A stretch of 64,000 bases of DNA, from sequence record SRR31156797_2307; one strand, written 5' to 3'. Numbering within the stretch: the stretch's first letter is position 1; the number at the start of each line of letters is the position of its first letter. The notes under the pieces are model-generated. The model searched no databases and was not told the origin of the DNA. It saw only the letters and a program-made list of their open reading frames with translations. The translations under genes and the position numbers were made by a program. Below are positions 1,428 through 61,951 of this stretch, in pieces.

Positions 1428-1432
1428 ACAAT

Positions 1433-11615: not shown

Positions 11616-11620
11616 TCAGA

Positions 11621-12703: not shown

Positions 12704-12711
12704 TCTTAATT

Positions 12712-13683: not shown

Positions 13684-13870
13684 CTGTTTTTTGTAAATAT
13701 AGACAAAAACTCAAAAGTTGTCGTCAACAGATACTTTCTTTATGGCTTATTTATCAGATAAATACAAATCCTGAACCTTTAAATAGGCGAAGCTAATCAA
13801 GCAATCAATGACAAGTTTACCTAATTCAGGAGATGCCTGTTTGCACAGTCATAATGTATAAACGAAAGAT

Positions 13871-13956
13871 ATCCCGGATGCAGCGTAGCGGAATTCAGGG
13901 ATTTTTTGTTATTAACTTATTATTCCCAAAATTTTGGGCTGATTCTTCGGATGACA
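13871..13956. repeat. REP-like palindromic element in the long intergenic gap
   Basis: ATCCCGGAT...ATTCAGGGAT imperfect hairpin (13871-13902), perfect palindrome CCCAAAATTTTGGG (13925-13938) and a GATTCTTCGGATGACA end that recalls Bacteroidota REP-type repeats. Confidence 0.4.
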
Positions 13957-14101
13957 AAACAGCTACTTTTTAGACCCCAGCAATAGAAATTGGGATAAAC
14001 GATAAGTAACTGAATTTGCTATTGTTGCAAAAGAGTTACATGTAAAACATACACAACTAAACATCATCTATTCAACAATTCTAATATAGATCAAACACAA
14101 T

Positions 14102-15163: not shown

Positions 15164-18100
15164 ATGTCATCAAAAGACATTGCAATTATAGGTATGGCAG
15201 CTCGTTTGCCTGAATGCGACAATATTCATCATTACTGGGATAATATTGTTTTAGGTAAAGAAATGATTTCAACCTTTAAAAGGGAAGACTTTAAGGAGGA
15301 ATATCAGAAAACTTTATTTGACAACGAGAGGTATATAAAACGGTCTTCTGTAATTCGGGATATTGATTGTTTTGACGCACGTTTTTTTGATTTCAGCCCA
15401 AGAGAAGCAGAACTTACCGATCCTCAATTTAGGCTATGTCTAGAAACAGCTTGGGAAGCGATCGAAGATAGTGGTTTCAATCCTAATAAAAACAGTGAAT
15501 GTGTTGGGGTTTACCTCGCTTCCAATATGTCAGATTATCAATTAAAACACTTGTATGACCAAATACACGGTGAAATGGTCTCTGAAAATGAGTTTCCTTT
15601 GGTTTACCAATCATGTATGGATTATTTGGCAACCAATGTGGCATACAAACTCAATTTAAAAGGGCCTTGTATGAATGTGCAAAACTGGTGTACATCGGGT
15701 TTAAGTTCAATACATCTAGCTTGCAGGTCTTTACTGTTCGATGATTGCGATGTGGCATTAGCTGGTGGCGTGCACATAAAATTACCACAAGAAGGCTACT
15801 TTAGCCAAGGTTCAGTTTCTGATTCTTCTGAAGGTGTATGCATGTCGTTTAATAAAGAGGCTAATGGAACTGTTCCGGCAAATGGGGTAGGTATTTTTAT
15901 TCTGAAAAAATTGGACGATGCCCTTCGCGACAACGATAACATTTATGCGATTATAAAAGGTTCTGCAATAAATAACGACGGAGTCGGTAAAAATAAGTTG
16001 AGCTATCACTCACCATCTATAAAAGGTCAGGATGAGGTAATAAAAAAAGCCTTAAAAAATGCAGGTGTAGATCCCGACACTATTTCGTTTATCGAAGCGC
16101 ATGGTGGTGCCACCGAATTTGGCGATAGGGCTGAATTAACGGCATTGGCTAAAAACTATGGGCTCAGCGGGCGTCAAACATTTCTTGGTTGCGTTAAGCC
16201 CAATATCGGGCACATGGGTAATATTTCGGGTATTCCCGGATTTATTAAAACTATAATGGCTCTTAAAACCAAACAATGGCCTCCTACTATTAATTTTTCC
16301 GAAATGTCTTCGAAAAATAAAAAAATAGGTCGGAATTTTACAGTTAATATAAAGCCTGTCGATTGGAAGTCTTCAATAGATTATAAACTGCGTGCCTGTG
16401 TACATAATTACGCTGTTGGAGGTTCGAATGCTCATATAATACTCGAAGAACCACCGGTTCAGAATGCTATTGAAAGTTGTGATTATAACAGTGTTGTTTT
16501 GGCTTTTTCGGCAAAAAACAACAAGTCCCTAAAAAAGCAAATAGAAAACATTGAATTGTTCCATGTTCATAATAGTTCAGTATTAAATTTGATTGACATT
16601 GCTTACAATCTTAATACAGGAAGAAAGGAATTTGAATATAGGCATTTTATGGTTTTGGATACAAACAAAAAAGCAACTTCAATTTCGGCTTCTAAAATTT
16701 ATGATGCAATAGGAACAATTTCTGGTGACTTTCAAGGGGAACAAACACTATTTTTAGGAAATAACAAGCATAATTGCAGGACTTTTAGTAAGATTTTAGC
16801 GAAAAGGTATAAAAGTTATAAAACAGATTTAATGACCTGTATTCTTGATATTGAAAAGCTACAGAATAGTAAAATATATTTTGATAGTATTAGTAATACT
16901 GCAGTCGGTACTTTTTATACTAGTATCGAAGAAAAGCTAATCGATATGGCGTGCCAGGTATCATTGTATCGATATTTGAATAGGTTAGGCATTGGTAAAA
17001 CTAATATTTTGGCAGATAATAGTGGCGAATTTATAGCACTTCATCTTTCAGGCTTTTCTTCCTTTAAAAAAATGGCAGAGCTATATATTAAAGCCTCTGA
17101 AGCCAACAGTTCTTTCGAAGATGAAGAAATTACAAGTTATTTCGATCTTCCCGATGCCAAATATGCATCTTATAAAAACTTCGATGGAAAAGTATCATAC
17201 AAAACAGAAGAAATAAGTAAACTGGCCTATTGGTCGAAACTTATAGATAAAGGAAATGATACTATTCAAAATAATTCAGAAGTTGATTGCGAAATATTAG
17301 ATCTTTCGGCATTAAAAATAAGCACCCTATCAGAAGCTATATCAAGTAAAACGAACGATTTTACTTCTTATGATTTTGATATTCTGGTAGGCCAATTATG
17401 GTTGAAAATTCCCAATTTAAATTGGAATGCATATTTCGATGAACGAAAGATGAAAAGAATGTCGTTGCCCACCTATCCTTTTCAAAAGGAGAAATTCTGG
17501 GTGTCTTCGCCTTTACTTGACGAAAAGCAACCGGTAGTATCAACTGAATTTCAAACAGAGGTATCGCAAGATAACATTCGGGAAAATCTGGTAACATTGT
17601 GGAAGAAAATTATAGGTTTAAAAGAAGTTAGCCCAGATGACGATTTCTATACTATAGGTGGAAATTCGTTTATTGCTGTAACATTGTTAAACAAATTGGC
17701 CAATATCTATAAAGGTCTCGATGTTTCTATAAAAGATTTGAACGACCATTCCAATATACAATTACTTACAACGTTTATTTATAAAGAATTGTCAAACAAC
17801 TCAGACGACAATCATTTTGATATTCAAAAAACACCGGTAGAAAAACTCGTTGAAAACGGATTGTTAGAGAAATATATCGAGCGATTGCTAAATAAACTGT
17901 TTCAGGGTAAATACAATTCCGACGAATTTAGTCTTATTGATATTGTTAAAGATGTATGCTTTTACTTTAAAAAGGATCTCGGATTAGTGGTTTTCACGCA
18001 TGAAATTGAGAACTTTTCAAGTACAGAAGTTTTGGTGAAATTTGTACGAGATGCTTTGTTAAATACACTTAATCCAAAGGGTGTAGGTTCGGGGTTATCT

Positions 18101-19003
18101 ACCAATAACTTTAAATGGTTGCCTAAAAACCTCGATTTCACAAAAAACAAGATATCACAAAAGAACAAAAGGGCTGTATTTATTTTATCTACACCACGGT
18201 CAGGATCAACTCTTTTAAGGGTGATGCTAAACAGCCATTCCACATTTTTTGCTCCACCCGAGTTAGGATTGTTGGTTTATAATAATCTGGAAGAATGGAA
18301 TCAATTCTATAATGTTTCCGAGGTGTCGAGAGATGGATTGACGTATGCTTTTTCTGCCATGCGTGATATTTCGTTTACCGAGGCCCGACAACAAGTAATG
18401 TCACTAGTTTCTGAAAAAAGGAGTGTTCAGGATATTTATTCATTATTACAGGAAGAAATAGGGGATAAGCTATTGGTTGACAAAACCCCTTACTATGGTT
18501 ATAGCAAAGAAATATTAGAAAGGGCCGAACAAATGTTCGATAATCCTTATTATATCTTTTTACACAAACATCCCTATAGTATGATCGAATCGTTTGTTCG
18601 TAATCGGTTCGATAAGCTTGTAGATAAGGGTGCTACCGATCCTTATATGATGGCTGAAAATGAATGGACAGAGATTAACCACAATATTATTGCTTTCTCA
18701 GAAAAGATTGATAGAAAACGATTTTTTCAATTATCGTTTGAAGAATTAGTTTCGGATCCTAAACGAGTAATGTCCGATCTGTTTCAGAAATTAAACATAG
18801 ATTTTCAAGACAGTGTTGTCGATCCATATAAAAACAGCTCAATGTTGGTTGGTCCTGGCGATTTTAACCTGCTTTCGCACGAAGGAATAGATAGCTCACT
18901 AGGCAATAAATGGAAAAATATTCAATTACCAATCGAGTTGAAGGATAGTACAAAAGATATTGCTTTAAAACTCGAATATTCTTTAGTGACGCATCACTTA
19001 TAG
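15164..19003 (+). CDS. Type I PKS: KS - inactive AT - ACP - vestigial ACP - sulfotransferase
   Basis: KS Cys-His-His (QNWCTSG, EAHGGAT, NIGH); AT remnant with ADNSGE where GHSxGE is expected; LPTYPFQ linker; ACP GGNSF; sulfotransferase FILSTPRSGSTLLR, PPE, DKTPY. No thioesterase. Confidence 0.9.
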   Translation: MSSKDIAIIGMAARLPECDNIHHYWDNIVLGKEMISTFKREDFKEEYQKTLFDNERYIKRSSVIRDIDCFDARFFDFSPREAELTDPQFRLCLETAWEAIEDSGFNPNKNSECVGVYLASNMSDYQLKHLYDQIHGEMVSENEFPLVYQSCMDYLATNVAYKLNLKGPCMNVQNWCTSGLSSIHLACRSLLFDDCDVALAGGVHIKLPQEGYFSQGSVSDSSEGVCMSFNKEANGTVPANGVGIFILKKLDDALRDNDNIYAIIKGSAINNDGVGKNKLSYHSPSIKGQDEVIKKALKNAGVDPDTISFIEAHGGATEFGDRAELTALAKNYGLSGRQTFLGCVKPNIGHMGNISGIPGFIKTIMALKTKQWPPTINFSEMSSKNKKIGRNFTVNIKPVDWKSSIDYKLRACVHNYAVGGSNAHIILEEPPVQNAIESCDYNSVVLAFSAKNNKSLKKQIENIELFHVHNSSVLNLIDIAYNLNTGRKEFEYRHFMVLDTNKKATSISASKIYDAIGTISGDFQGEQTLFLGNNKHNCRTFSKILAKRYKSYKTDLMTCILDIEKLQNSKIYFDSISNTAVGTFYTSIEEKLIDMACQVSLYRYLNRLGIGKTNILADNSGEFIALHLSGFSSFKKMAELYIKASEANSSFEDEEITSYFDLPDAKYASYKNFDGKVSYKTEEISKLAYWSKLIDKGNDTIQNNSEVDCEILDLSALKISTLSEAISSKTNDFTSYDFDILVGQLWLKIPNLNWNAYFDERKMKRMSLPTYPFQKEKFWVSSPLLDEKQPVVSTEFQTEVSQDNIRENLVTLWKKIIGLKEVSPDDDFYTIGGNSFIAVTLLNKLANIYKGLDVSIKDLNDHSNIQLLTTFIYKELSNNSDDNHFDIQKTPVEKLVENGLLEKYIERLLNKLFQGKYNSDEFSLIDIVKDVCFYFKKDLGLVVFTHEIENFSSTEVLVKFVRDALLNTLNPKGVGSGLSTNNFKWLPKNLDFTKNKISQKNKRAVFILSTPRSGSTLLRVMLNSHSTFFAPPELGLLVYNNLEEWNQFYNVSEVSRDGLTYAFSAMRDISFTEARQQVMSLVSEKRSVQDIYSLLQEEIGDKLLVDKTPYYGYSKEILERAEQMFDNPYYIFLHKHPYSMIESFVRNRFDKLVDKGATDPYMMAENEWTEINHNIIAFSEKIDRKRFFQLSFEELVSDPKRVMSDLFQKLNIDFQDSVVDPYKNSSMLVGPGDFNLLSHEGIDSSLGNKWKNIQLPIELKDSTKDIALKLEYSLVTHHL

Positions 19004-19101: not shown

Positions 19102-20442
19102 TTGAAAAATAAGCTAGTAATACTATTAGTCGAAGGTGCCAGTAAAAAACTAATTAATAAGTGGCAAGATAAACTTCCGTATTTAAGTAATTTATTAAGC
19201 AAAAATGGAGGAACCTTAACCACTAACGTAGTTCCGTATGAAGCACCAAACCTAATCTCGGCATTTACAGGGCTTCCGCCCGAAGAGCACGGTGTATATT
19301 CCTATTGGCACGTACATAACAACGACTATATTCCTAAAACATGGGATGCCCCGGATATTAAAGTACCAATGCTGTGGCAGTTACCGGAAATGGAGCAATA
19401 TAAGTTTTCGTTATTAAACTTATTCTGCACTTTTCCGGCATATCCCATAAATGGTAAAATGATATCATATTTGCAACAGCCTTCGTTAAGAGGGTGTTAC
19501 CCAGAGGGATACATAAAGGAACTTTTGCGAAACGGACATAAGTATACTTCCGATGTATTTGTTGGACTTGGCTATGGACAAGACAAACCAATTTCTGGAA
19601 AAAATATTTCACCTAGAGAAGAGTATTACAGGTTGTTTGAAGAAACAGAAAGGGCAAGGGTAAATATAGCCTCTGAAATGATGGAAGAATCAGATGTGCT
19701 TATAGCAAATTTTACTATAATTGACAGGCTTTCTCATTTTTTTTGGCACGAAATAGAATACGATTCACCTATAACCGAAGAGGATTCATTACTATTTAAA
19801 GCATATCGGTTTATCGATGAGGTTGTCGGACAATTTGCCGATAAAATTGGAACAGCATCCAACCTGTTGGTTTTTTCAGAGATTGGTTATGGCCCCTTAA
19901 TCAATTTTGTTTCTATCAACAATTATCTCGAAACTGGCAAGTTTTTGTCTCGGGAGAATTCTTCTACTAGTTGGCAAAAAACATTGACATTTGAGAGTGT
20001 TCAGGGAGCCCATGGAGTTAATATCAATAAAAAAGACAGATACCTAAATGGCCTGGTAAACGACGACGATTACCAAAAGGTGCGGATTGATACAATGGAT
20101 TATTTAAAGAGCCTGATCAATCCCAAAACAAGTCTTCCAATGTTCCGTTTTGTTAAAGAACGCGAAGAGGTATATAATGGAACATACATGCAACAAGCTC
20201 CCGATATAATTGTTGAAATGGCCGATAGAAGATTTGTACCCTTAGGTGATGAATATTGGTCGAGTAAGGTACATCGGATTAATCAAAGCGGATGGCACCG
20301 AAAAGAAGGATTTTGGACCGGATATGGTGATAAATTCAATGGAAAACTTATGGATGCATCTATACTTGATATAGCTCCTACGGTTTTCAAAATTTTAGAC
20401 AAGGAAATAAATACAGAGTTTGTGGGAAAACCTATCATTTAA
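19102..20442 (+). CDS. Alkaline phosphatase superfamily protein (type I phosphodiesterase/nucleotide pyrophosphatase-like) with atypical ligands
   Basis: LLVEGA, TG..PEEHGVY, DRLSHFFW, VFSEIGYG, APDII, SGWHRKEG and DIAPT align with the AlkP/NPP-like family. Confidence 0.75.
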   Translation: MKNKLVILLVEGASKKLINKWQDKLPYLSNLLSKNGGTLTTNVVPYEAPNLISAFTGLPPEEHGVYSYWHVHNNDYIPKTWDAPDIKVPMLWQLPEMEQYKFSLLNLFCTFPAYPINGKMISYLQQPSLRGCYPEGYIKELLRNGHKYTSDVFVGLGYGQDKPISGKNISPREEYYRLFEETERARVNIASEMMEESDVLIANFTIIDRLSHFFWHEIEYDSPITEEDSLLFKAYRFIDEVVGQFADKIGTASNLLVFSEIGYGPLINFVSINNYLETGKFLSRENSSTSWQKTLTFESVQGAHGVNINKKDRYLNGLVNDDDYQKVRIDTMDYLKSLINPKTSLPMFRFVKEREEVYNGTYMQQAPDIIVEMADRRFVPLGDEYWSSKVHRINQSGWHRKEGFWTGYGDKFNGKLMDASILDIAPTVFKILDKEINTEFVGKPII

Positions 20443-20470
20443 TCAGGTTAGGTTATATAAAAATGAAAAA

Positions 20471-21277
20471 ATGGGAAAGCTAGCTTCTAAACTAAAGTCT
20501 TTTAAATTAATTCGATGGTTTTTGTGGTATGTCAAAGTACAGAATAAGTTGCCGCTGGTGCTTGAAATAGAATTAGACTCGCTTTGCAATCGTAAATGCA
20601 CCTATTGTCCTAATTATAAACACGAAAGGGCACATCATACTTTAAGTTCTGATACATATAAAGGTATTATTGGCCAATTACACGAAATGGGTTGGAAGGG
20701 TGTTATTTCACCGCATTTTTACAACGAACCTTTGCTCGATAAACGATTAGAAGAATTGTTATTGTATACAAAACAAAAACTAGGTAAAAGAGCATGTATC
20801 AAACTATTTACAAACGGCGATTTGCTAACAACTGAATTAGCAAAGAAGTGGCTATTCGATTCTAAAATAGTAGACGAATTTGTGGTTACAGTCCATGAAA
20901 AAGATTTGTCGGATAGGAAAGATTTGGTGGATTTATCCAAACTTCCCGAGTATCAAAGAAAACTGTATGTTAGATCAACTGAGAATATTGAAAAACAATA
21001 TTTAAACAGGGGTGGTATCATGGATTTTGATTATGTAAACTGGGGGGAGGAGTTTCAAAAACTCGGTTGTTCATTAACACAAAGAATGATTATAACCTCA
21101 AAGGGTAATCATGTGTTATGTTGCAACGACTATTTCGAAAAAACTGCATTTGGAAATGTCAGTGATACAAGTATCCAGAAACTATGGAGCAAATCTAAAA
21201 AAACAAGAAAAGACACCTATATAGGTAATTTCAAATTACCAATTTGTAAAGTATGCGTAGGCATTTCAAAAAACTAA
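20471..21277 (+). CDS. Radical SAM enzyme with twitch/SPASM domain
   Basis: CNRKCTYC, NEPLL, TNG, NRGG, C...CCNDY...FGN...CKVC. ATG 20471 is preferred to the overlapping start at 20420. Confidence 0.88.
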   Translation: MGKLASKLKSFKLIRWFLWYVKVQNKLPLVLEIELDSLCNRKCTYCPNYKHERAHHTLSSDTYKGIIGQLHEMGWKGVISPHFYNEPLLDKRLEELLLYTKQKLGKRACIKLFTNGDLLTTELAKKWLFDSKIVDEFVVTVHEKDLSDRKDLVDLSKLPEYQRKLYVRSTENIEKQYLNRGGIMDFDYVNWGEEFQKLGCSLTQRMIITSKGNHVLCCNDYFEKTAFGNVSDTSIQKLWSKSKKTRKDTYIGNFKLPICKVCVGISKN

Positions 21278-21294
21278 AATAAAAAAATAATAAT

Positions 21295-22749
21295 ATGAAC
21301 AACGAAAATTCAATGAACAGTAACGTATATGTTGTATTTGGAGCACAAACGTGTATACTAAATAGGACCCACACCCAAAGAATGAGGAATTACTTGGAAA
21401 AAAATGGTTATAATTTAACATCAAATATAGCTGAGGCAGGAACTATATTTTTTTCAGGATGTGCAGCTACTGGATCAGCTGAGTTATATAACTTGAACGA
21501 ACTGGCCTATTTAGAAAAAAGAGTTGAAGAGAATAATTCAGGGCAAAGAATAATATTGTTTAGCTGTTTACCCATTATAAATAAAAGAACGCAGGGAGAA
21601 TATAAAGACAGTGCGAATAATCAGAAAAACATTATTTTAGAAGGGAAATATAAAAATGATCCCAATTCAAGATATGTTTATATAGACACCTATGATTTCA
21701 CAATGTTGGATGATATGTTTGCTCATAAGGTTAAATTCAAGGATGTACCTGTTCCAAACCAAATAACTCCAGATTCAGGAATGGAGTCCATGCAATTGGC
21801 GCTAAGAGCATTAAAGAATTGCCAATACGGTGGAATTGAAGATTTTAAGGATTCCTATGTTAAGCAAGCAGGTTTACAATCGCAGTTAAAGCAATTGGGC
21901 CAGTTTTTTCCTATTACGTGTGATTTTTTACAAAGTTATGGGTACTACTCTGTTACCATAGGAAATGGATGTATTCACAAATGCGCCTTTTGTTCTGTCA
22001 AGTTTGGTAAATACTTGTTAAAAAGTGAACCACTTGATCAGATCTTGAGAGATATAAAGAAACTGGAAGAAAAGGGTATAAACAAATATTTATTGTTGTG
22101 TGACGATTTGGGTTCATGGGGACGCGACACAAAATCACATTTCACCGTTCTGTTAGATGCCATTGCCGATTTAAATATAGAAGGTATGAAATTGGCACTT
22201 TATAACGTAAAAATTAATGATGTAATAGAAAATAGGGAGTTTTTCGATAATATGGTAGACAAAGGGCTGATAAGCTACATGGGGATTATGAACCAGCATG
22301 TTGACGAAAATATTATTGAAAGCATGAACCGGAAGCCATTTGATGAGGAAGTCTTCCTAGACATTATTAATACCTATGGAGATAAAGATGTTAACATGCA
22401 TGCGCATCATATTATAGGATTCCCGGGTGAAACTGAGGAACAATTCCAGCGCTTGCTCAATTTTATTTCAAAAATAAAAACTAAGAACTGTGGTATTTTA
22501 AACCTTCCTTATTCTCCAAGGAAAGGAACTAAGGCATATGAATATACCAATGTAGTTCCAGAAGATATAAAAATGGAAAGGGTACAACGTATGAATATTC
22601 ATAACTTAAATGTTGCATCCGAAAGATTTAAGGGATTCAATGAAGAGATAAGAGCAACCTTACTTGAATTAATGCGATTGTTTTTTGCAGGTAAAGAAAT
22701 CCAGGAATACTTGATGAACAAGAACGAAACTACAGAGAAAGAAGCATAG
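21295..22749 (+). CDS. MiaB/RimO-like radical SAM methylthiotransferase-family protein lacking an evident TRAM domain
   Basis: UPF0004-like N-terminus with three cysteines (QTCILN, SGCAAT, FSCLP); GCIHKCAFC; IIGFPGETEEQF; YSPRKGT.A. Confidence 0.8.
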   Translation: MNNENSMNSNVYVVFGAQTCILNRTHTQRMRNYLEKNGYNLTSNIAEAGTIFFSGCAATGSAELYNLNELAYLEKRVEENNSGQRIILFSCLPIINKRTQGEYKDSANNQKNIILEGKYKNDPNSRYVYIDTYDFTMLDDMFAHKVKFKDVPVPNQITPDSGMESMQLALRALKNCQYGGIEDFKDSYVKQAGLQSQLKQLGQFFPITCDFLQSYGYYSVTIGNGCIHKCAFCSVKFGKYLLKSEPLDQILRDIKKLEEKGINKYLLLCDDLGSWGRDTKSHFTVLLDAIADLNIEGMKLALYNVKINDVIENREFFDNMVDKGLISYMGIMNQHVDENIIESMNRKPFDEEVFLDIINTYGDKDVNMHAHHIIGFPGETEEQFQRLLNFISKIKTKNCGILNLPYSPRKGTKAYEYTNVVPEDIKMERVQRMNIHNLNVASERFKGFNEEIRATLLELMRLFFAGKEIQEYLMNKNETTEKEA

Positions 22750-22885
22750 TTTACGGTTGGCTGTGTGAGCCTACTATTATTTTAGGTGCAAAAAAATACT
22801 TGATGACAAATAAATATTATTTGTAGGTGTTTTGTTTTGTAATAACCTGTTCTTTAAAATCACATTAATTTACAACCAATTTAGA

Positions 22886-25800
22886 ATGAAAGATATAGCA
22901 GTTATAGGGGTGTCTTGCCATTTTCCGGGTGCTGAAAATAAAGATCAATTTTGGAACAATCTTAAACAAGGGGTAGATTCAACAACCAGGTTTACCAGGC
23001 AAGAATTACTGGATGCAGGAGAAAAGCCTGAATTGCTTAATGATCCTGATTATGTTATGGCAGCTCCAATTGTCAAAGACTATGACAAATTTGATGCTAA
23101 CTTTTTTGGTTATAGCCCAAGTGTGGCAGAGTTGATGAATCCTGAAGCCAGGTTAATGCTTCAATGTGCATGGGAAACGTTAGAAGATGCAGGCTATGTA
23201 TCGGAAAAATATAAAGGAGCAATTGGTGTATATGCAGGGGCATTAATGCATAATTATTATAAAGACAACATCTGTTCAACCATCGATTTTGAAAAATGGT
23301 CGGAATCTATAAGGGCTTTTTCTTTAAACGAAAAAGAATACTTAACAACAATAATAGCCGATCGACTTCATCTTAAAGGGCCTGCTGTTACGCTGCAGTC
23401 TTTTTGTTCAACATCCTTAATGGTTATCCACTATGCATGCCAGGATATTATTTCTGGTACTAGTGATATAGCCTTAGCCGGTGGGATAAACATCAGAATA
23501 CCTCATGAGAGGGGTCATATCTATGAAGAAGGTGGAATGCAGGGCCCGTATGACCATTGTAAAGTATTCGACGAGAAGGCGGCGGGTACAATATTTGGAA
23601 GCGGATATGGCATGGTTGCATTAAAAAGGCTTGATCGTGCTATAGAAGATAACGACCATATTTATGCTGTAATTAAAGGGACGAGTGTAAACAATGATGG
23701 AGGTAATAAGTTAAGCTTTATGGGGCCGAGTATTTCCGGCCAGAGTGAAGTAACAAAAAAATGCATTAATATTTCAGGCATCGACCCTCAAACAATTGGC
23801 TATGTCGAGGCTCATGGAACAGGTACTGATGTCGGAGATCGTATAGAATATATCGCCTTATCAAAGGCACTTAAATCTTTGAAAAAGAACCAACATAAAT
23901 GTCCAATAGGTTCGGTGAAAACAAATATTGGGCACTTGGGTATATCTTCGGGTATTGCCGGATTTATAAAAACGGTTTTAACAATACATCATAAGGGAAT
24001 ACCTGCAAATTTATATTTCGACAAGCCGAATCCCCATATTCGGTATGAAGAAAGTCCTTTTTATGTTAATACAGAGTTTATAGATTGGGAAAAACAGGAA
24101 TATCCGAGAAGGGCAGTGGTTTGTTCTCAGGGAGTTGGGGGTACAAATGCTTGTGCAGTTTTAGAAGAGGCTCCTGAAATAAGGCTTGAGAATAAAAAAG
24201 ATGGTCTTTTCATTTTGCCTTTCTCTGCTAAAACAAATTCGGCGTTAAAAGCTGTAAATAAAAACTTGGAAGTTTTTATTAAAGAAAACGAAATTGAATC
24301 GGAACCCCTTTCTTATACCCTGTGCTGTGGAAGGAAACAACAGGAGAAAAGAAATTTTGTTATTGGGAAAGACCGGCAAGAGTTACTGTCAAATCTTGGC
24401 ATGATCTGTAATAAAGATATCGTAGAAGCTAAGAAAGCGAATCAATCGGTTGTGTTTATGTTTCCGGGTCAGGGATCTCAACATATTGATATGGGATATG
24501 ATCTTTATCTTAAATATACGAATTTCAGAAAATATTACGATCAGTGTGCAGATATATTGAACGATTTGCTAAATAAAGATATCAGGAATATAGTTTTTAA
24601 TCATAGTGAAGATCATGAAACGGCTACGGAAAAATTAAAAACTACTCGTTATGCCCAGCCTGCTATTTTCTCGCTTGAGTATTCGCTGGCCAGATTTTTA
24701 GTGGATTTAGGCATTGAACCGGCAGCCTTGATAGGTCACAGTGTTGGTGAATTTGTAGCAGCTACCCTAGCAGGAACTATTGGGTTGGAAGATGCTTTGA
24801 GGTTAATAGTTAAAAGAGGTGAATTATGTAACCGTGCAGAAGCCGGAGGAATGCTGTCCGTGTCATTGGGATATAGTGCAATACAGCCTTATCTGCATGA
24901 TAAAGTATCGGTAGGTGCAATTAATTCTCCTTTTCTAACCATTGTTTCGGGTCCATACAGAGAATTGGAAAAACTGAAGGAACAGCTCGAAAAAGATGGT
25001 AAAAACTGTAACTATCTTCATGCATCGCACGCATTCCATTCTTATATGATGCAGCCGATGTTGGATGAATTTATAAGTCTCTTTGAAAGGGTTACATTAC
25101 AAAAACCAGGAATACCAATAATGTCGACCGTAACAGGTCAATGGCTAAACATGGAGGAAGCCATTTCGCCACAGCATTGGGCCGATAATGTACGTAACAC
25201 GGTAAGGTTTTCAGAGGGGATTACAAAATTATTGGAAGAAACCGATCATATGCTTCTTGAAGTTGGTCCGGGAACCACCTTGGCAACCCTCACAAAATGT
25301 CATAAAGATCCGTTTCCAGAAAGAACTATTGTAACATCTTTAAAGCACGCTTCGGACAATATACACGATGACAAAATATTTTTAACATCTCTTGGGAAAA
25401 TATGGTCAGCTGGCATAAAAATAAACTGGGATTTGTTGTTCGACACAAAAAATAGCCAAAAGATATCACTGCCAACTTATCCTTTTGAGAAAAAGAGGTT
25501 TTGGATCGATATTAATCCTACAAACAAAATACTTCCTGTTCAACAAGAAATAAATCCACGATATTACTACAGACCAAGTTGGAAAGAGGGTTATATTGAC
25601 AAACCAACTGTAAGCGAAAAATCGTGTGTACTATTTAACGATGGCTCGGACTTATCCAAAGAATTGTCTGAACAATTAAGCCAAAACAATTCGGTAATCA
25701 ACGTTTTCTACCAAAAAGAATTATATAAACAAGAAAAAGGCAATTATCTGGTCGATACATGCGACAAAGATGCCTTTAAAAAATTGTTTGATATCATAAT

Positions 25801-28800
25801 CACGGAACATGCCAAACCTGATCAGGTAGTATATTTATGGAACAAAAAAAGTGTAGATAGCAATAATCCATACAATGATTTTTTCACTTTGCTTGGAATG
25901 GTTAAAGCATTGGGCAAACTTTCTTCGGGTCGCGAAATAAATATGTTGGTTGTTTCTGTCGAGTCAGAAAATATTAGCGGCAACGAAACAGTTGAGCCAT
26001 TGTTGTCTCTTTCTAAAGGAATAGTGAAAGTAGCCGCAACCGAGTATAGCGGTTTGCAATGCAAGCATATCGATGTGCAAAAACTATCGGATATAAAAAG
26101 TACTACACAAAACATTTTAATAGAAATGTCTTTATCCCAAAATGGTAGTACTGTTGCTTATCGTAACAATAAACGGTGGGAAAGATATTATGAAACCACA
26201 GATTTTAATCCGTATGGCAGTAATCTAGAATATAAAGATTCTGATATTTACCTGGTTACTGGAGGTCTTGGAGGTTTGGGTTTCGAAATGGCAAAGCATA
26301 TTGCTTCGTCAAGCCGCTCAAAAATAATTTTAACAGGAAGAACCGATATCGATAATCAAAATGATTCTATTAAGCAAGAAAGGTTCAAACAATTAAAATC
26401 GTTAAACAATGAAATCGAATACCATGCTTTAGATATTGCTAATGATAAACAGGTAGGTGATTTTGCCAGGGAAGTAATTAAAAAACACCATCATATCAAA
26501 GGTATCTTTCATTGTGCAGGAAATCCTGGAGGAGGTATAATAGAACTCAAAACAAAGGAAATGGCTTTGAAAGTTTTAGATCCTAAGGTTATTGGCACCT
26601 CTGTTTTGTACAAGTATTTTAAAGACAGTTTAACGGATTTTCTGTTGTTGTTTTCATCCGTGGCTTCAATAAAAAGTTTGGTGGGTCAGGTAGAATATAC
26701 AGCGGCTAATGCCTTTTTAGATGCTTTTGCCCAATCAGTAAATGACCCAAGGGTAGTAAATATTAATTGGGATTTGTGGGGACAAACCGGTATGGGCTTT
26801 ATCGATGTGCCCGCATCAATGAAAAAACAAAGAGGAATTGACCTTGCAAAGGGAATAAAAACCGCGGAGGGTATTTCAACCATAGAAAATGTACTTAGTT
26901 CGCGACACTATAATAACTTAATAGTATTGAACGAACCGCTGGAAGGAACAAGTGATACAAATGCAAGAATACAGCCAGCATCCAGAAGTATAGTCGAAAA
27001 TGTACCAGAGAAATCTGTAATTGAGAAAAATCCCGATATTGAAAAGTGGTTTTATACACAAACGTGGAACAAATCTCATTTTCCTTTTTCAGGAATTGAG
27101 AATGGAGACCAAACATGGCTCGTGTTTGCGGGTAATTCGCAAATATGTCGTAATCTGATAGAAAATATTGGAAACAGAGGTCATAAAGTAATTACTGTAA
27201 ATATTGGAGATGAATATAATACTATCGACGCGTACAATTATGTATTGAACCCAGGAGATAAGTCAGGTTATGTTTCGCTTGTAAACAGCTTGAAAGAAAA
27301 TGATTTGGTTCCTGGTCATATACTGCATTTTTGGACAGTAAATGACGAAATTAAAGATGAAGTAATTATTAAAAAAAATACATTTAGGGAATTACAATCA
27401 ATTGGTATTTATAGCGCTGTTGAATTGTTACAGGAATTGAATACGTCGTGCTATATCGAAGAACTTAAATTTACTCTGATAACCCGAAATATATACAATG
27501 TAACAGGATACGAAAAGTTAAATCCTCAAAATGCTACTATTCTCGGATTGCTTAAGGTTACTTCTCTTGAATATCCAAACATTATAATCAGAAATATAGA
27601 TTTAGACAGCGATTCGCAAAATGCTCTTCAGTTGTATAACGAATTGTACAATGGCGAATACAAGAAAATTAAAGCTGTACGAAACGATAAATGTTGGGTA
27701 CAATCGTATGATCATATCAATTTGCAAAATCTGGTTCCTGGCAATTCAATTGTTAAAGATGGAGGTGTTTATTTAATTTCTGGTGGACTTGATGTTGTAG
27801 GCTATCGTGTTGCCGAGTTTATGTCCCGTACCTTTAAGATAAAACTTGCTCTTGTGGGTGAAATGAAAACTCACAAATGGGATAAGTGGAACAACCTTGA
27901 TCTGGAGGATGATTCTTCGGATGCTATTAGAGCGCATAAATTAGAAGGGTTGAAAAAATTCAATCCCGATATCGACTATTACAGTATCGATATTACATCG
28001 GCCGAAGCATGGAACGAAACTATTGATGCCGTTACCGCGAAATGGGGTACCATTGATGGAATAGTACATGCAGCCGCAACTTTAGATCCTTCATCGTTTA
28101 AACCTATAAACAATGTTACAAGCAACGAGTTCGAAGAGCATTTTAATACCAAGGTATACGCGTCTTTAATTATTACCGATATTATTGAAAAACACGCTAT
28201 TCAACAATGTTTGTTCGTGTCTTCTGTTTCTTCAATTCTGGGTGGTATTGAGTTTGTAACTTATTCATCGGTAAACAATTTCCTCGATAATTTTGTGAAT
28301 TATCTGAAATACCGGTTTAAAGAAAAAACCATAGCGTTATTAAATCTTGATGAATTACAATTCAACGAGAAAGAAGAAAAAATTACACGTTATGGAAAAG
28401 AATTACAGCGATTGTCGATATCAGGTAACGAATTGCACAAAATATTCTCTTATTTTTTAACTGAAATCAGAGAAAACCAACTTGTAATTTCTACTAGTGA
28501 GCTGTTACCAAGACTCGAGAAATGGCACGGGTTGCATAAAAAAGTCGAAACAGTACCTGAAACTTCTGTAAGCTCAAATCTAGTAACAACTACCTACGAT
28601 ATCAAACAAGAGCTTGTAAATATTTGGCAGGAAATATTGGGATTTGATACAATTCAAATAACCGATAATTTTTATGCCTTGGGTGGTGATTCGTTGTTGG
28701 CCACAAGTATGGTAAACAGAATGAGGAAGAAGTTTGGCAATATAAATATCTCCATTGGCGATATTCTTGACAAACCTACCATAGAGCAGCAAGAAGAATT

Positions 28801-30367
28801 GGTAAAACAATACTATAAACCCACACAAATTAGTACAACTCTTACAGGCAATGCAATTTTTGACGTTAAAGACGAAATTATATCTATCTGGAAACAGACG
28901 CTGGGTTTTGATTCTATCGATCCTAATTCAAACTTCTATGCTTTAGGTGGTGATTCATTGCTTGCCACAAGTATTGTGAATAAGTTAAGGCAGAAATTTA
29001 GTAATATTGATATTTCTATTGGCGATATTCTTGATAATCCGACAGTTGAGAAACAAGAAAAATTAATTGGCCAGTTATCCAATATTGAAGATGAAGAACC
29101 GAAGGATGTTTACTCGCAATATATAGAAAGCGAAAAGGCCGAACGGTTTGAAATTGTAACCAATTATTTTATTTCGCTTTTAAAACAATCGGGTATTATT
29201 GAAACAAACAACGATATCGACAAATCGATAAATCGATCGTTAAAACTAAATGGTATAATCTATTCAGGTTTTGTTAAAGATTTTAAAATTCCGATATACG
29301 AAAACGAAATTTTACTTCATACTTCATATCGCGAATTGCTTTCGGCTATTTTCACGGAATTAGAGAAATTCAATGGGTTTGCCGACTTGGGTGCAGACAT
29401 TGAGTTCGAAGCCGCAATACCTGACTTAAAACCTGGCAAAAGAATAATCCTAGGCAAAAAGAAAAATCCATCCATGGTATTTGTGCATTCTGCACCACGG
29501 TCTGGTTCAACCTTATTTAGACTAATGCTCGAGGGACACGAAAAGTTGTTTAGTCCTCCGGAATTTCAGCTTTTAAATTATAATGATTTAGCTCATTGGA
29601 ATTCAGATCGGGTTAAAATAACCAAAAATTATAGTGGCTTGGCATTTTCGCTGGCTAAAATTCATAATACAAATATGAGTTCTGCTAATAGTACTTTGGA
29701 TCAGATGGTTGCTAAGTCGCTATCAATAAAAGATGCTTATAAAACTATACAGTCAGGTTTAGAGGGAGTTACATTGGTAGATAAATCGCCAAATTATGCT
29801 ATCGACATAAATCATCTGGCAAAGGCAGAAGAAATATTCGACAGGCCCAAACATATTCATTTAGTTCGACATCCTTTCCCGGTTATAGAATCATTTGTGC
29901 GCAATCGTATGTTTGCATGGTTCAACAATAGTGAAGGTATTAACCCGTACAAGTTTGCCGAAAAAATATGGTATCTCAATAATTTCAATTTGTTTCATTT
30001 TAAAGAGATGGTTTCGGCCGATCAGTATTTATTGGTGTGTTACGAAAATCTTGTCAGCAATCCTGAAGATGAAATGAAAAAAATATGTTCATTCCTTGAT
30101 ATTGAATTTAACAAGGATATGCTTTCTCCATATACAGGGCAAAAAATGATCGACGGTTGTGGAGACCCAACTGTTGGTACAAGAAATAACATTGATAAAA
30201 ATCTTGCTGAAATCTGGAAAACTATTGATCTGCCTATATCGTTATCAAAGTGTACCATTGAACTGATGGGGAAATTTGGCTACACTCAACCCGAAAGCAA
30301 TGAAGCCGATCTCTCTCAATTGTTACAGGAAGAAATTTTCAGGGAAATGAATAACGGATTACAATAA
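22886..30367 (+). CDS. Type I PKS: KS - AT (malonyl-type) - KR - KR - ACP - ACP - vestigial ACP - sulfotransferase
   Basis: KS QSFCSTS/EAHGTGT/NIGH; AT FPGQG, GHSVG, HAFHS; KR1 GGLGGLG...YTAAN; KR2 GGLDVVG...YSSVN; two LGGDSL ACPs; sulfotransferase SAPRSGSTL, PPE, DKSPNY, VRHP. ATG 22886 (MKDIAVIG) is the likely start. Confidence 0.92.
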   Translation: MKDIAVIGVSCHFPGAENKDQFWNNLKQGVDSTTRFTRQELLDAGEKPELLNDPDYVMAAPIVKDYDKFDANFFGYSPSVAELMNPEARLMLQCAWETLEDAGYVSEKYKGAIGVYAGALMHNYYKDNICSTIDFEKWSESIRAFSLNEKEYLTTIIADRLHLKGPAVTLQSFCSTSLMVIHYACQDIISGTSDIALAGGINIRIPHERGHIYEEGGMQGPYDHCKVFDEKAAGTIFGSGYGMVALKRLDRAIEDNDHIYAVIKGTSVNNDGGNKLSFMGPSISGQSEVTKKCINISGIDPQTIGYVEAHGTGTDVGDRIEYIALSKALKSLKKNQHKCPIGSVKTNIGHLGISSGIAGFIKTVLTIHHKGIPANLYFDKPNPHIRYEESPFYVNTEFIDWEKQEYPRRAVVCSQGVGGTNACAVLEEAPEIRLENKKDGLFILPFSAKTNSALKAVNKNLEVFIKENEIESEPLSYTLCCGRKQQEKRNFVIGKDRQELLSNLGMICNKDIVEAKKANQSVVFMFPGQGSQHIDMGYDLYLKYTNFRKYYDQCADILNDLLNKDIRNIVFNHSEDHETATEKLKTTRYAQPAIFSLEYSLARFLVDLGIEPAALIGHSVGEFVAATLAGTIGLEDALRLIVKRGELCNRAEAGGMLSVSLGYSAIQPYLHDKVSVGAINSPFLTIVSGPYRELEKLKEQLEKDGKNCNYLHASHAFHSYMMQPMLDEFISLFERVTLQKPGIPIMSTVTGQWLNMEEAISPQHWADNVRNTVRFSEGITKLLEETDHMLLEVGPGTTLATLTKCHKDPFPERTIVTSLKHASDNIHDDKIFLTSLGKIWSAGIKINWDLLFDTKNSQKISLPTYPFEKKRFWIDINPTNKILPVQQEINPRYYYRPSWKEGYIDKPTVSEKSCVLFNDGSDLSKELSEQLSQNNSVINVFYQKELYKQEKGNYLVDTCDKDAFKKLFDIIITEHAKPDQVVYLWNKKSVDSNNPYNDFFTLLGMVKALGKLSSGREINMLVVSVESENISGNETVEPLLSLSKGIVKVAATEYSGLQCKHIDVQKLSDIKSTTQNILIEMSLSQNGSTVAYRNNKRWERYYETTDFNPYGSNLEYKDSDIYLVTGGLGGLGFEMAKHIASSSRSKIILTGRTDIDNQNDSIKQERFKQLKSLNNEIEYHALDIANDKQVGDFAREVIKKHHHIKGIFHCAGNPGGGIIELKTKEMALKVLDPKVIGTSVLYKYFKDSLTDFLLLFSSVASIKSLVGQVEYTAANAFLDAFAQSVNDPRVVNINWDLWGQTGMGFIDVPASMKKQRGIDLAKGIKTAEGISTIENVLSSRHYNNLIVLNEPLEGTSDTNARIQPASRSIVENVPEKSVIEKNPDIEKWFYTQTWNKSHFPFSGIENGDQTWLVFAGNSQICRNLIENIGNRGHKVITVNIGDEYNTIDAYNYVLNPGDKSGYVSLVNSLKENDLVPGHILHFWTVNDEIKDEVIIKKNTFRELQSIGIYSAVELLQELNTSCYIEELKFTLITRNIYNVTGYEKLNPQNATILGLLKVTSLEYPNIIIRNIDLDSDSQNALQLYNELYNGEYKKIKAVRNDKCWVQSYDHINLQNLVPGNSIVKDGGVYLISGGLDVVGYRVAEFMSRTFKIKLALVGEMKTHKWDKWNNLDLEDDSSDAIRAHKLEGLKKFNPDIDYYSIDITSAEAWNETIDAVTAKWGTIDGIVHAAATLDPSSFKPINNVTSNEFEEHFNTKVYASLIITDIIEKHAIQQCLFVSSVSSILGGIEFVTYSSVNNFLDNFVNYLKYRFKEKTIALLNLDELQFNEKEEKITRYGKELQRLSISGNELHKIFSYFLTEIRENQLVISTSELLPRLEKWHGLHKKVETVPETSVSSNLVTTTYDIKQELVNIWQEILGFDTIQITDNFYALGGDSLLATSMVNRMRKKFGNINISIGDILDKPTIEQQEELVKQYYKPTQISTTLTGNAIFDVKDEIISIWKQTLGFDSIDPNSNFYALGGDSLLATSIVNKLRQKFSNIDISIGDILDNPTVEKQEKLIGQLSNIEDEEPKDVYSQYIESEKAERFEIVTNYFISLLKQSGIIETNNDIDKSINRSLKLNGIIYSGFVKDFKIPIYENEILLHTSYRELLSAIFTELEKFNGFADLGADIEFEAAIPDLKPGKRIILGKKKNPSMVFVHSAPRSGSTLFRLMLEGHEKLFSPPEFQLLNYNDLAHWNSDRVKITKNYSGLAFSLAKIHNTNMSSANSTLDQMVAKSLSIKDAYKTIQSGLEGVTLVDKSPNYAIDINHLAKAEEIFDRPKHIHLVRHPFPVIESFVRNRMFAWFNNSEGINPYKFAEKIWYLNNFNLFHFKEMVSADQYLLVCYENLVSNPEDEMKKICSFLDIEFNKDMLSPYTGQKMIDGCGDPTVGTRNNIDKNLAEIWKTIDLPISLSKCTIELMGKFGYTQPESNEADLSQLLQEEIFREMNNGLQ
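28595..29074 (+). repeat. Tandem duplicated ACP domains within the large PKS (264-nt spacing)
   Basis: IW..ILGFD.I...NFYALGGDSLLATS.VN..R.KF.NI.ISIGDILD.PT.E.QE occurs twice. Confidence 0.9.
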
Positions 30368-30396: not shown

Positions 30397-33300
30397 ATGA
30401 ACGATAGTACCACTTCAAATACTATAGGATATAAAATAAACAAACCAACAGATCTTAAAATATACCCGGTTTCGCCACCTCAAAAAAGGTTGTGGTTCAA
30501 CGATCTTTTAAATGCCGAAAGTGAAGCTTACAATCTTCATCGAATATACAAGGTAAAGGGTAATCTTAAGATTGATTTGTTGGAGCAAAGTATTAATATT
30601 CTGTTTAGTAAGCAAAAATCATTTTTTACCATATTTCGCGAAAAAGCCGGAAAACTGTTCCAGGTTGTTTTGCCTCCCAATTATATTAAGTTGCAGGTAA
30701 CCGATTTGACCGATATGACATTCGAACAGGTTGTGGATCCTTCATCTCTCGTACTAAATGAAATTATTAGTACACAGTTCGATATTTCAAAATGGCCTAT
30801 TTTTCGTATTCGTTTATTAAGACTGAAAAACAATATATCACTATTTTGTTTTGTTCAGCATCATATTATTTCCGATTGGTGGTCAATAGGTTTGACATTC
30901 GGTCAGCTTTCAGAGATTTACAATACGTTAGAATCTGGCAGAGAATTTGAATATCCGGAATTGAAACTTCAATATTGCGATTTTTCTATAAAAAGAGATA
31001 TGGAGTTGAGCAATGGAATTTATGGTGAACAATTAGATTTCTGGAAAAATAAACTGAGACATTCATCGGATTTTAACTTTCCTTACGACTATAAGAGACT
31101 TGAGAATTCGAAACGAATAGGGCAACTGGTAAACAAAGAGGTACCGTCGGAAATTACACGAGCAATAAATAGTATCTGTAAGGAAGAAAACGTTTCGTTA
31201 TATGTGTTCCTATTATCAGCCTTTGGGGCATATATAAATAAGCTTACCGGAAGCAGAAAAATAAATATAGGATTACCAATCGCCAATAGAAATAATTCCG
31301 ACTTGGAAGATATTATTGGCTTTTTTGTTAACATTATTGTTGCACAGGTAAATGTAATGGAAAACGCCTCTTTTGCTGAATGTTTGCGCAGCGTTCGAAA
31401 AGAAATGTATAAGGGGTATGATAATCAGGATATTCCGTTTGATAAAATTGTTGAAGCAATAAATCCTTCGCGAAACAACAATAAAAATCCTCTGTTTCAG
31501 GTGTTTTTCAATATGTTGAATAAAAACGACAACGCATTTTCTTTAAACAATCTTGAAATTGAACGGATTAATTATGAGGTGAATATAAAATCATATTTCG
31601 ATTTTACTATTTATATTACTGACAAAACTGATACTATTCTGCTGACTTGTTTGTACGATACCGATTTAATGAAGCGTAGTACCGTTGAAAAAATGCTCGA
31701 TCAGTATGTGTTTATTTTATCGCAGATATCGCAAAATGTTAATGGACAAATTTCTGGTTTAACTTTAAGAAGTGAAGAAGATTACCAACTTTTACCCGAT
31801 CCTACAAAAAATATTGATCCATCGTTGGGTGGTTATAATTTGTTAGACCGTGTTTTCGAAAATAAAGGATTGAACATAGCACTTGTTTTTAATAACCAGG
31901 AATGGGATTATAATGCTATCGATGAGGTTTGCAATAAAATGGTTTCTTGTTTTAAATCATCGGGAATAAAACAGGGCGACCATGTAGCTATTTATGCTAC
32001 AAGAAGCGCGGTTTCAGTGATAGCCGTGCTCGCGGTTTTAAAGTTTGAATGTGTTTTTTGTATAATAGACCTTTCGGAACAACCAGTCGATAAAATAGTA
32101 GAACAAATTGATTGGAGCAATCCTCAGTCAGCTATTTATATTGAAACATCAGACAATGGTAATGCAACGAAATGGGAGGAGTTGAAACAAAAAACTGCTA
32201 TTAACATAGAATTGCCCGAAAGTAAAGATGAGTTGACTTCGTTTTTACAAGAATATAAATACGAAAATCATCCAAATATTAATAAGCCGGATAGCGAAAG
32301 TTACATACTTTTTACTTCGGGAACTACCGGAAAACCAAAAGCTGTTGTCGGAACCATGAGGCCTATTGCATGTTTCATCAGCAGGCATATAAAATCCTTT
32401 GATCTTAACAATAAATATAACTATGCTTTATTGTCGGGACTAACGCACGATCCTTTAATTCGCGATATATTTGTTCCGTTATGTGTTGGAGCAACTCTTT
32501 ATATTCCCGACAATGATTTACTGCGGTCACTAAAACTAGCCGAATGGCTTGAAAATTATAATATCAATACAATAAACATTACACCAGCATTAATTAGCGT
32601 TCTTACAAATGATACCGAACATGCTATAAAATGTGTAAAACATATTTTTTGCGGAGGCGACATACTCAGTATTGATATGGTAAAAAAACTAAAAACCAAA
32701 TTTCCAGATGCAAACATTATTAATTGCTATGGAGCTACTGAAACTCCTCAAATTATAAGTTATTTCACGATAACGGATGCTTTGTATGAAGATTTCGAAA
32801 AAAATAAGATTGGAAAAATATTGATAGGATCGGAAACCGAATCGACTCAATTAATTCTAGTAAATAATAATAAGCTTGCCGGAGTTGGCGAAATTGGCGA
32901 GATATGTGTGCGGAGTCCGTATTTGTCGAAAGGTTATCTAAAGCAAAAACATGAAACAAAAGAACGTTATATTACCAATGTTTTTACAGGAAACAGCAAC
33001 GATATTATATATAAAACGGGCGATTTGGGCAGGTATACTGTTGATGGAAATATTGAGTTTATTGGCAGGGCCGACTCGCAGGTGAAAATTAGAGGATACC
33101 GATTTGATATAAAAGAAATTGAATATATACTTAAACAACATACATTCATCGAAAGTGCCGTAGCAATTATAAAATCTGAATCCGGTAATGATGACAAGAA
33201 AATAGTAGCATATTATGTTTCCGACAGAAATATTTCGTCGCTTGAAATAAAGGGGTTTTTAAGAAGAAAATTACCCGAGTATATGATTCCTTCTTCGTTG

Positions 33301-34421: not shown

Positions 34422-34443
34422 ACTAAATACTAGAACTGTTTTA

Positions 34444-39261: not shown

Positions 39262-39323
39262 AAAGAGATTGTGATACAAATCAACAATATTCAAACTCCG
39301 TTATTTAAAAATAAGTTTCGTTT

Positions 39324-53239: not shown

Positions 53240-53240
53240 C

Positions 53241-56790: not shown

Positions 56791-56834
56791 TTAAACCTTG
56801 ATTTTTAATTAGAAATATAGATTAAGATAATAAT

Positions 56835-59583: not shown

Positions 59584-59635
59584 TAAATCTTATCAATTTA
59601 AAAGCTGTTTTACCTAACAAATTGATAAGTAAACC

Positions 59636-60760: not shown

Positions 60761-60796
60761 TATCAATCTTAAAGTAATTATTTTTCTTATTTGTAA

Positions 60797-61885: not shown

Positions 61886-61951
61886 TTAGTTCATATACAG
61901 TATGGACTAGTTGTAAATTCGTGTATTTAGATAGTAAACTAACATTATAAA

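Follow-up and report, generated by a model that had tools for sequence, protein, structure and literature searches.

Methylthiotransferases (MTTases) of the MiaB/RimO type belong to the radical S-adenosylmethionine (SAM) class of enzymes and carry an auxiliary iron-sulfur cluster. SAM methylates the sulfide of this auxiliary cluster, a second SAM gives a radical, and the target carbon gains an SCH3 group; in the housekeeping enzymes the tRNA or the ribosomal protein S12 is held by a TRAM domain. We have analyzed a gene of this superfamily (positions 21295 to 22749) in a 64,000-nucleotide stretch of DNA from sequence record SRR31156797_2307, referred to here as the window. The gene is embedded in a cluster of polyketide synthase (PKS) and nonribosomal peptide synthetase (NRPS) genes, and its product lacks a detectable TRAM domain. 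The gene is very probably dedicated to this cluster and not a tRNA or S12 enzyme. By analogy with the described MTTases, we put at roughly one in two the probability that its product is a cluster-dedicated enzyme that uses their two-cluster chemistry on an intermediate of the cluster.

PMC2952846 distinguishes four MTTase subgroups, all with TRAM, and PMC10702137 (2023) gives tRNA and S12 as the known MTTase targets. The latter source also relates that a methylthiotransferase for methylthio-F430 was sought and not found, and that the single MTTase of ANME-1 (a group of anaerobic methanotrophic archaea) does not make methylthio-F430. According to PMC13389010 (2026), no gut-microbial enzyme is known for methylthio transfer to small metabolites. 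PMC9477430 lists the MTTase subgroup with the three N-terminal cysteines only. A small-molecule or assembly-line target is a kind not yet shown for the MTTase family. Our literature search, which covered papers outside the subscription-only ones, found nothing on MTTases without TRAM or on any MTTase with a role in a biosynthetic cluster, and no description of a PKS cluster from the Bacteroidales that combines sulfotransferase and radical SAM genes.

Domain structure and placement of the protein

On sequence comparison, the protein is a member of a TRAM-less branch of the MTTase superfamily and not a housekeeping MiaB, RimO or MtaB. Pfam matches were obtained to UPF0004 (PF00919) at residues 20-97, with 29.3 bits against a gathering score of 27, and to Radical_SAM (PF04055) at residues 221-391, with 57.4 bits. 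A reading made from the sequence alone (the sequence-only reading below) had pointed to three N-terminal auxiliary-cluster cysteines, a CxxxCxxC motif, a long insertion before that motif and a helical-looking tail instead of TRAM, and each of these features was confirmed. The auxiliary-cluster cysteines C20, C56 and C91 (codons 21352-21354, 21460-21462 and 21565-21567 by direct translation) and the CxxxCxxC cysteines C226, C230 and C233 (codons likewise checked by translation) are invariant in a 47-sequence alignment with relatives of MiaB, RimO and MtaB. The third auxiliary cysteine and the first radical SAM cysteine are 135 residues apart; the median spacing is 75 among 34 relatives that have TRAM and 104 among 50 rows taken as TRAM-less (rows without a Pfam TRAM match, minus 17 placed by the tree in the MtaB and MiaB clades). 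The expanded linker carries a subfamily motif, LD..(x)..F..VP.P, at 138-154, in which L138, D139 and P152 are nearly invariant within the subfamily. In an AlphaFold2 model it also contains helices at 159-174 and 182-200, both of low confidence. The model was built on the 47-sequence alignment and has a predicted local distance difference test score (pLDDT) of 79.7 and a predicted template-modelling score (pTM) of 0.81.

Beyond the barrel, the predicted structure consists of helices alone (423-447, 450-462 and 467-483, assigned by DSSP on the AlphaFold2 model). Neither TRAM nor TRAM_2 gave a Pfam match up to E=1, with the whole protein or with its last 62 residues alone. Because the TRAM of true MtaB proteins likewise escapes Pfam, this blank by itself is weak evidence, and the absence of TRAM in the query therefore rests on the AlphaFold2 model and on hhalign. 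When the subfamily alignment was compared by hhalign with a 12-sequence RimO alignment, RimO columns 3-375 of 452 were aligned with a probability of 100%, and the TRAM columns of RimO remained unmatched. The ranges reported by VIA-align are the first and last aligned residues only, and hhalign was used to show that TRAM is unaligned. By phmmer, residues 215-448 of the query align with residues 137-369 of RimO, with 36 residues remaining after the barrel.

The query scores below every NCBIfam methylthiotransferase cut-off, yet is nearest to that family. It reaches 160.5 bits (E 5.7e-47; cut-off 251) with TIGR00089, the model of the MiaB/RimO family (SFLD subgroup 12), 137.2 bits with the RimO model TIGR01125 (cut-off 357), 130.2 bits with the MtaB model TIGR01579 (cut-off 357), 111.1 bits with the MiaB model TIGR01574 (cut-off 355.3) and 110.4 bits with the e-MtaB/CDKAL1 model TIGR01578 (cut-off 314.7). 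The B12-type models of NCBIfam cover the radical SAM core only, at 25-40 bits and E 1e-10. Comparison of folds gave Z scores of 27.5 for MtaB, 26.4 for MiaB and 26.3 for RimO over 366-372 aligned residues; the next class is formed by the B12-type radical SAM enzymes at Z <=19.5 (MgmA 19.5, AprD4 17.8, TsrM 15.8, CysS 15.6). Foldseek matched the model to RimO with E 1e-20, and RimO is also the closest solved structure by sequence (E 2.1e-19; MiaB E 1.4e-12). Among 39 columns that are at least 90% conserved in 39 housekeeping-type relatives, 27 are kept in the query, including S244, Q334, M344, R346, GFPGET, S407, G411, T412 and R429. The changed positions are G19T, N54S, T55G, G90S, P236K, R239K, G240Y, E264K, R301A, P307I, L341I and F404L; several of these (236, 264 and 301) are altered in other TRAM-less proteins too.

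Two phylogenetic trees, both of them without any e-MtaB sequence, place the query outside the housekeeping clades. In a FastTree analysis of 108 rows, from which the fragments P0123, P0127 and P0128 were omitted, a split with support 100 separates 54 rows without Pfam TRAM from 54 RimO, MtaB and MiaB rows; the former number includes the query and two orthologues, which were not Pfam-scanned as tree rows. In an IQ-TREE analysis of 52 rows (quick search, mixture model), RimO, MiaB and MtaB together form one 23-row clade (SH-aLRT 100) with the query outside it, and the query subfamily comprises 8 rows with support 100.

Relatives, the orthologue genome and the wider branch

A word-indexed search returned two close relatives, P0001 (76% identity) and P0002 (72%), after which identity fell to 27% or less. 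An exhaustive search of 1.84 billion representatives yielded 10,164 proteins at E<=1e-3 and just 10 at E<=1e-30: P0001, P0121 (41%, 484 residues), P0122 (35%), P0123 (36%), P0124-P0127 (32-34%), P0128 (a fragment of 185 residues, 48% identical) and P0129 (31%). The query, P0001, P0002 and P0121-P0128 make up the alignment termed A3. All eight subfamily and sister-group clusters that were looked up (8/8) are singletons. With a subfamily profile, a true member (741 bits) was found in one of 401 order-level and one of 401 phylum-level genomes, which are the same genome (G001), and in 0 of the 800 other Bacteroidota genomes sampled, where the next-best match had 167 bits. A metagenome scan with a 3-sequence alignment and generic patterns (ETEEQFQ and one other) kept 80 loci, all at most 32% identical, and no new close relative. 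A search of sequencing runs listed no RNA run as carrying the query.

The orthologue P0002 lies on a 4474-bp contig (locus L001) of G001, a metagenome-assembled genome of an uncultured member of the Bacteroidales, and is identical to the query at 343 of 477 aligned residues (72%). Between the two genes the nonsynonymous divergence (pN) is 0.175 and the synonymous divergence (pS) 0.839, the latter being saturated. The pieces of the cluster sit on separate short contigs in G001 and show the same local order. On L001 the C-terminal end of a SPASM gene is followed by the MTTase-like gene (72%) and the PKS (63%); elsewhere a sulfotransferase end precedes the phosphodiesterase gene (63%), the NRPS gene (50%) precedes two successive hydrolase genes, and the gene for a 168-residue protein precedes the radical SAM genes and their unknown neighbours. 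The conserved local order and the pN/pS values together therefore indicate that the gene is a conserved, constrained component of the cluster. G001 has housekeeping-type genes as well: MtaB, with 436.5 bits, and RimO, with 460.9 bits, pass the cut-offs of their models, and a MiaB-type gene with 352.0 bits falls slightly short of the 355.3 required (365 bits on TIGR00089). When the NRPS module was compared with this 6.3-Mb genome, 89 distinct matches reached E<=1e-20, and the genome is therefore unusually NRPS-rich for its order.

These comparisons largely refute the explanation that the gene encodes an ordinary tRNA or ribosomal-protein MTTase beside PKS genes, with a degenerate or undetected TRAM domain, which we regard as very improbable. 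The 76%-identical P0001 is annotated as 'tRNA A37 methylthiotransferase MiaB', and the failure of Pfam on genuine MtaB proteins would also fit a TRAM that was overlooked. However, the tail is predicted to consist of helices and the TRAM columns of RimO find no counterpart in the alignment; the protein reaches none of the curated cut-offs and falls outside a housekeeping clade of support 100; the subfamily is missing from the 800 other Bacteroidota genomes sampled; and G001, which already has MtaB, RimO and a MiaB-type gene, conserves the position of the gene within the cluster.

TRAM-less relatives are not confined to the subfamily. TRAM or TRAM_2 was detected in 11 of the 60 best representatives and not in the other 49, and in an Atlas search 23 of the 30 nearest clusters have UPF0004 and Radical_SAM without TRAM, with lengths of 395-413 residues. 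All three auxiliary cysteines are strictly kept across this branch. Distant TRAM-less relatives in four other Bacteroidales genomes are all found in non-translation contexts. One locus (L106; G397:C22:56000-75900) has 11 radical SAM genes in a row, followed by an ABC ATPase gene; six of these genes are B12-type, three are TRAM-less and of UPF0004 type, one is SPASM-type and the remaining one belongs to another type. Another Bacteroidales relative is paired with a B12-type radical SAM gene, and two more occur in triples of methyltransferase, FtsX-MacB and MTTase-like genes. As judged from these sequences and gene contexts, the branch has many members and no fixed association with translation genes; the query is one more instance of this large unstudied branch, set apart by its very rare subfamily and its fixed PKS/NRPS place.

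The PKS/NRPS cluster and its borders

The sequence-only reading had located the gene inside a natural-product cluster, and the PKS, NRPS and acyl carrier protein (ACP) neighbours identified with Pfam and NCBIfam bear this out (Table 1). Every gene from about 6.5 to 52.5 kb is on the + strand. An acyltransferase_3 gene and genes for two unknown proteins come first in the order of genes, followed by the free ACP. The MTTase-like gene (21295..22749) begins 18 nt beyond the stop codon of its upstream neighbour, the radical SAM/SPASM gene 20420..21277, and 82 nt lie between its end and the downstream PKS of 2511 residues (22832..30367). After the hydrolases come a MacB/FtsX permease gene and the radical SAM genes 38353 and 39582, and then genes for a phosphopantetheinyl transferase, ABC transporters, HlyD and an outer-membrane factor. 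No GHSxG acyltransferase motif was found in the PKS-like protein of 15164..19003. For the phosphodiesterase protein of 19102..20442 no closer family was found, and a PDB sequence search was empty.

Table 1. Features of the window, in order of position. KS, ketosynthase; AT, acyltransferase; KR, ketoreductase; C, condensation; A, adenylation; T, thiolation; MTA, methylthioadenosine; SAH, S-adenosylhomocysteine; aa, amino acids; AF2, AlphaFold2
Feature	Position	Strand	Basis and remarks
MTA/SAH-nucleosidase-like gene and metK	723-2719		Pfam/NCBIfam
Free-standing ACP, 83 aa	10178..10429	+	Pfam PP-binding, E 1.2e-8; precedes three radical SAM/SPASM genes
Three radical SAM/SPASM genes	starts 10437, 11621, 14102	+	Pfam/NCBIfam
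GFO/IDH/MocA oxidoreductase	start 12712	+	between second and third of the first three SPASM genes
PKS-like KS-ACP-sulfotransferase, 1279 aa	15164..19003	+	Pfam; KS Cys present
Type I phosphodiesterase/nucleotide pyrophosphatase family gene	19102..20442	+	Pfam PF01663, 92.5 bits
Fourth radical SAM/SPASM gene, 285 aa	20420..21277	+	Pfam SPASM and Radical_SAM
TRAM-less methylthiotransferase-like radical SAM gene, 484 aa	21295..22749	+	ATG start; Pfam UPF0004 and Radical_SAM
N-terminal UPF0004 (auxiliary [4Fe-4S]) domain, residues ~10-100	21322..21594	+	Pfam
Expanded linker/insertion, residues 92-215	21568..21939	+	spacing compared with relatives
Radical SAM core, residues 216-422	21940..22560	+	CxxxCxxC at 21970-21993; Pfam Radical_SAM
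All-helical C-terminal tail, residues 423-484	22561..22746	+	DSSP on AF2 model; occupies the place of TRAM
PKS KS-AT-KR-KR-ACP-ACP-sulfotransferase, 2511 aa	22832..30367	+	Pfam; ACP serines 1954 and 2042
NRPS module C-A-T	30397..33636	+	Pfam
Two alpha/beta hydrolases	33636-35274	+	follow the NRPS

The cluster contains seven radical SAM genes (10437-15145, 20420-22749 and 38353-40514): four of SPASM type, the MTTase-like gene and two that are B12-type-like. So many radical SAM genes are unusual in one assembly-line cluster of a Bacteroidales-like genome with 33% GC. The presence of four SPASM-type genes, a class often used in peptide maturation, and the better match of the query to RimO than to MiaB among solved structures (E 2.1e-19 vs 1.4e-12) would suit an enzyme that acts, as RimO does, on a residue of a peptide or protein, which could be a ribosomal precursor peptide or a protein of the cluster. 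We consider such a target improbable: the search for small open reading frames (ORFs) in the intergenic gaps, of which the adjacent ones measure only the 18 and 82 nt given above, revealed neither a conserved peptide resembling a precursor nor a TRAM encoded on its own, the query does not fall in the RimO clade, and the S12-binding TRAM of RimO is absent.

Several other features of the cluster were observed. The radical SAM genes 38353 and 39582 resemble B12-type lipid-biosynthesis proteins (TIGR04072, 54 and 78 bits, below the cut-off), and both look split (37752-39261 and 39324-40514). An ORF of 168 residues with a weak B12-binding match (E 1.4e-4) precedes the radical SAM core of 302 residues at 38353, and a B12-binding-like piece of 67 residues (E 0.06) is in frame with the radical SAM ORF of 310 residues at 39582, with a stop at 39525-39527 between them. 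Both PKS proteins (15164-19003 and 22832-30367) end in Sulfotransfer_3 after the ACP or ACPs, without a thioesterase domain; ACP-sulfotransferase-thioesterase ends occur in CurM-type terminal-olefin formation. Three paralogues (40801-42246, 42760-43593 and 44771-46186) could be assigned to no family of Pfam or NCBIfam and match no PDB sequence, and all three match the same region of contig C493 of G001. A PDB sequence search with the 471-residue unknown protein was empty. The top PDB match of the NRPS module, LgrA (328 bits), initially seemed to point to the second adenylation domain of LgrA; a call of adenylation specificity on this basis was dropped because the 328 bits sum two similar matches, of 161 and 164 bits, one to each adenylation domain of LgrA.

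At the left border, between metK and a GH2 glycosidase gene, remnants of a transposase of the IS4/5 family occupy three or more reading frames at 3221-3838 (DUF4096, E 2.4e-13; DDE_Tnp_1, E 2e-4). This segment looks like a decayed insertion sequence and is likely a boundary between the metK/nucleosidase pair and the cluster. The pair was considered as part of the cluster and set aside, since the IS4/5 fragments and a glycoside hydrolase family 2 (GH2) gene intervene. Downstream of the efflux genes the GC content drops to 27-29%, and 52616-64000 looks like a surface-polysaccharide locus, with a Wzy_C O-antigen-ligase-like protein, two family 4 glycosyltransferases (GT4), a MurJ/MatE-type flippase and proteins without a family.

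Proposed chemistry and comparison with known systems

The enzyme probably modifies the product of the cluster in an uncultured Bacteroidales-like bacterium. The sequence-only reading had proposed an MTTase repurposed for sulfur insertion into a small molecule or carrier-bound intermediate, such as an adenine moiety. The repurposing agrees with the lack of TRAM, the placement outside the housekeeping clades and the fixed place in a PKS/NRPS cluster. The adenine moiety is without support: nothing in the cluster points to a nucleobase and the nucleosidase/metK pair is cut off by the IS4/5 fragments and the GH2 gene. That sulfur or a methylthio group is inserted is what we infer from the retained two-cluster architecture and the 27 of 39 conserved positions, which make up the evidence for it. 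If so, a sulfide of the auxiliary cluster would receive a methyl group from SAM, a second SAM would yield the 5'-deoxyadenosyl radical, and this radical would take a hydrogen from an unactivated carbon, which would capture SCH3 (or sulfur alone). The target would be an acyl or peptidyl chain of the cluster, most likely tethered to a carrier or just released. The linker and the tail may take over substrate binding in place of TRAM, and the tandem ACPs of the downstream PKS could plausibly serve as a docking site for an enzyme acting in trans. A predicted complex of the MTTase-like protein with the second of these ACPs (residues 2003-2088) scored 0.00 and carries no weight either way. In its most specific form, which we offer tentatively and hold less probable than the general reading, the protein would be the first enzyme of the MTTase family to attach sulfur or SCH3 to a polyketide or lipopeptide intermediate, tethered to a carrier or free, at a carbon that is not activated, with the linker and helical tail replacing TRAM.

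A number of observations weigh against transfer of sulfur to a cluster intermediate. The 12 changed positions of the 39 could alter the cluster environment or the chemistry and not only the substrate: G19T, N54S, T55G and G90S flank the auxiliary cysteines, and P236K, R239K, G240Y, E264K and R301A are in the core. The insertion is poorly modelled, with pLDDT < 50 at residues 103-114 and 177-209. No gene for sulfur mobilisation was named by Pfam or NCBIfam in the cluster, and no methylthio-bearing metabolite has been linked to it. The housekeeping MTTase genes were checked in the orthologue genome only. The literature searched gives a reaction for none of the TRAM-less proteins of this branch, and the chemistry is therefore extrapolated.

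Some of these observations would suit an enzyme that is dedicated to the cluster but transfers no sulfur, and that acts on the polyketide or lipopeptide by radical chemistry such as C-methylation, the forming of a C-C bond or a ring, desaturation or epimerisation, its auxiliary cluster serving for electron transfer or substrate anchoring. We regard this explanation, including the role it gives the auxiliary cluster, as possible and yet somewhat unlikely. Besides the uncharacterised state of the branch, the altered residues and the want of a named sulfur-handling gene, it draws on the B12-radical SAM methylase-like genes that adjoin TRAM-less relatives in other genomes, a context that fits non-sulfur chemistry too. 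The fold of the UPF0004 domain plus core also matches the B12-radical SAM enzymes MgmA, AprD4, TsrM and CysS (Z 15.6-19.5), and the structure entries of CysS and TokK include pantetheinylated substrates. Nevertheless, MTTases outscore the B12 enzymes both in fold (Z 26-27.5 vs <=19.5) and in sequence (TIGR00089 E 5.7e-47 vs 1e-10), the three auxiliary cysteines are strictly kept throughout the TRAM-less branch, and the 484-residue protein has no match to the B12-binding domain PF02310 at E<=1.

A TRAM-less relative that is fixed in a cluster provides defined candidate substrates, namely carrier proteins and assembly-line intermediates, and the function of the whole TRAM-less branch is therefore testable. 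Sulfur transfer to a polyketide or lipopeptide intermediate, if true, would give this branch a function and reveal a route to C-S bonds in assembly-line products; it would also extend the known means by which polyketide C-H bonds are functionalised. If the sulfur chemistry is not true, the two-cluster MTTase scaffold would have been recruited for other radical chemistry.

Sulfur transfer to a carrier-bound chain has a working analogy in lipoyl synthase LipA and biotin synthase BioB, radical SAM enzymes that insert sulfur into an octanoyl chain bound to a carrier or into a small molecule. They have two Fe-S clusters, and the auxiliary one is the source of the sulfur that the unactivated carbon of the acyl chain or small molecule receives. 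Unlike the query, LipA and BioB have other auxiliary-cluster domains and motifs and transfer no methyl group, and their matches to the query in fold and sequence are weak (Foldseek E 1e-5 to 1e-6), much lower than those of the MTTases.

Among the MTTases, RimO (the uS12 Asp beta-methylthiotransferase; TIGR01125, PDB 4JC0) shares with the query the three UPF0004 cysteines, the radical SAM core and the GFPGETEE motif, with a fold Z score of 26.3 over 366 residues. The query differs from RimO in having no TRAM, in a linker that is longer by about 60-70 residues, and in its place in a PKS/NRPS cluster rather than as a lone housekeeping gene. The tRNA A37 C2-methylthiotransferases MiaB and MtaB (PDB 7MJV and 9A6D) have the same three-part core fold (Z 25-27.5) and the same six cysteines, whereas the query has no RNA-binding TRAM and has P236, R239, G240, E264 and R301 replaced. 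A further group consists of uncharacterised TRAM-less UPF0004-radical SAM proteins of 370-470 residues from metagenomes, which have the same domain pair and fall on the same side of the tree as the query; compared with these proteins, the query has a longer linker (135 residues vs a median of 104) and a tail that is about 30 residues longer.

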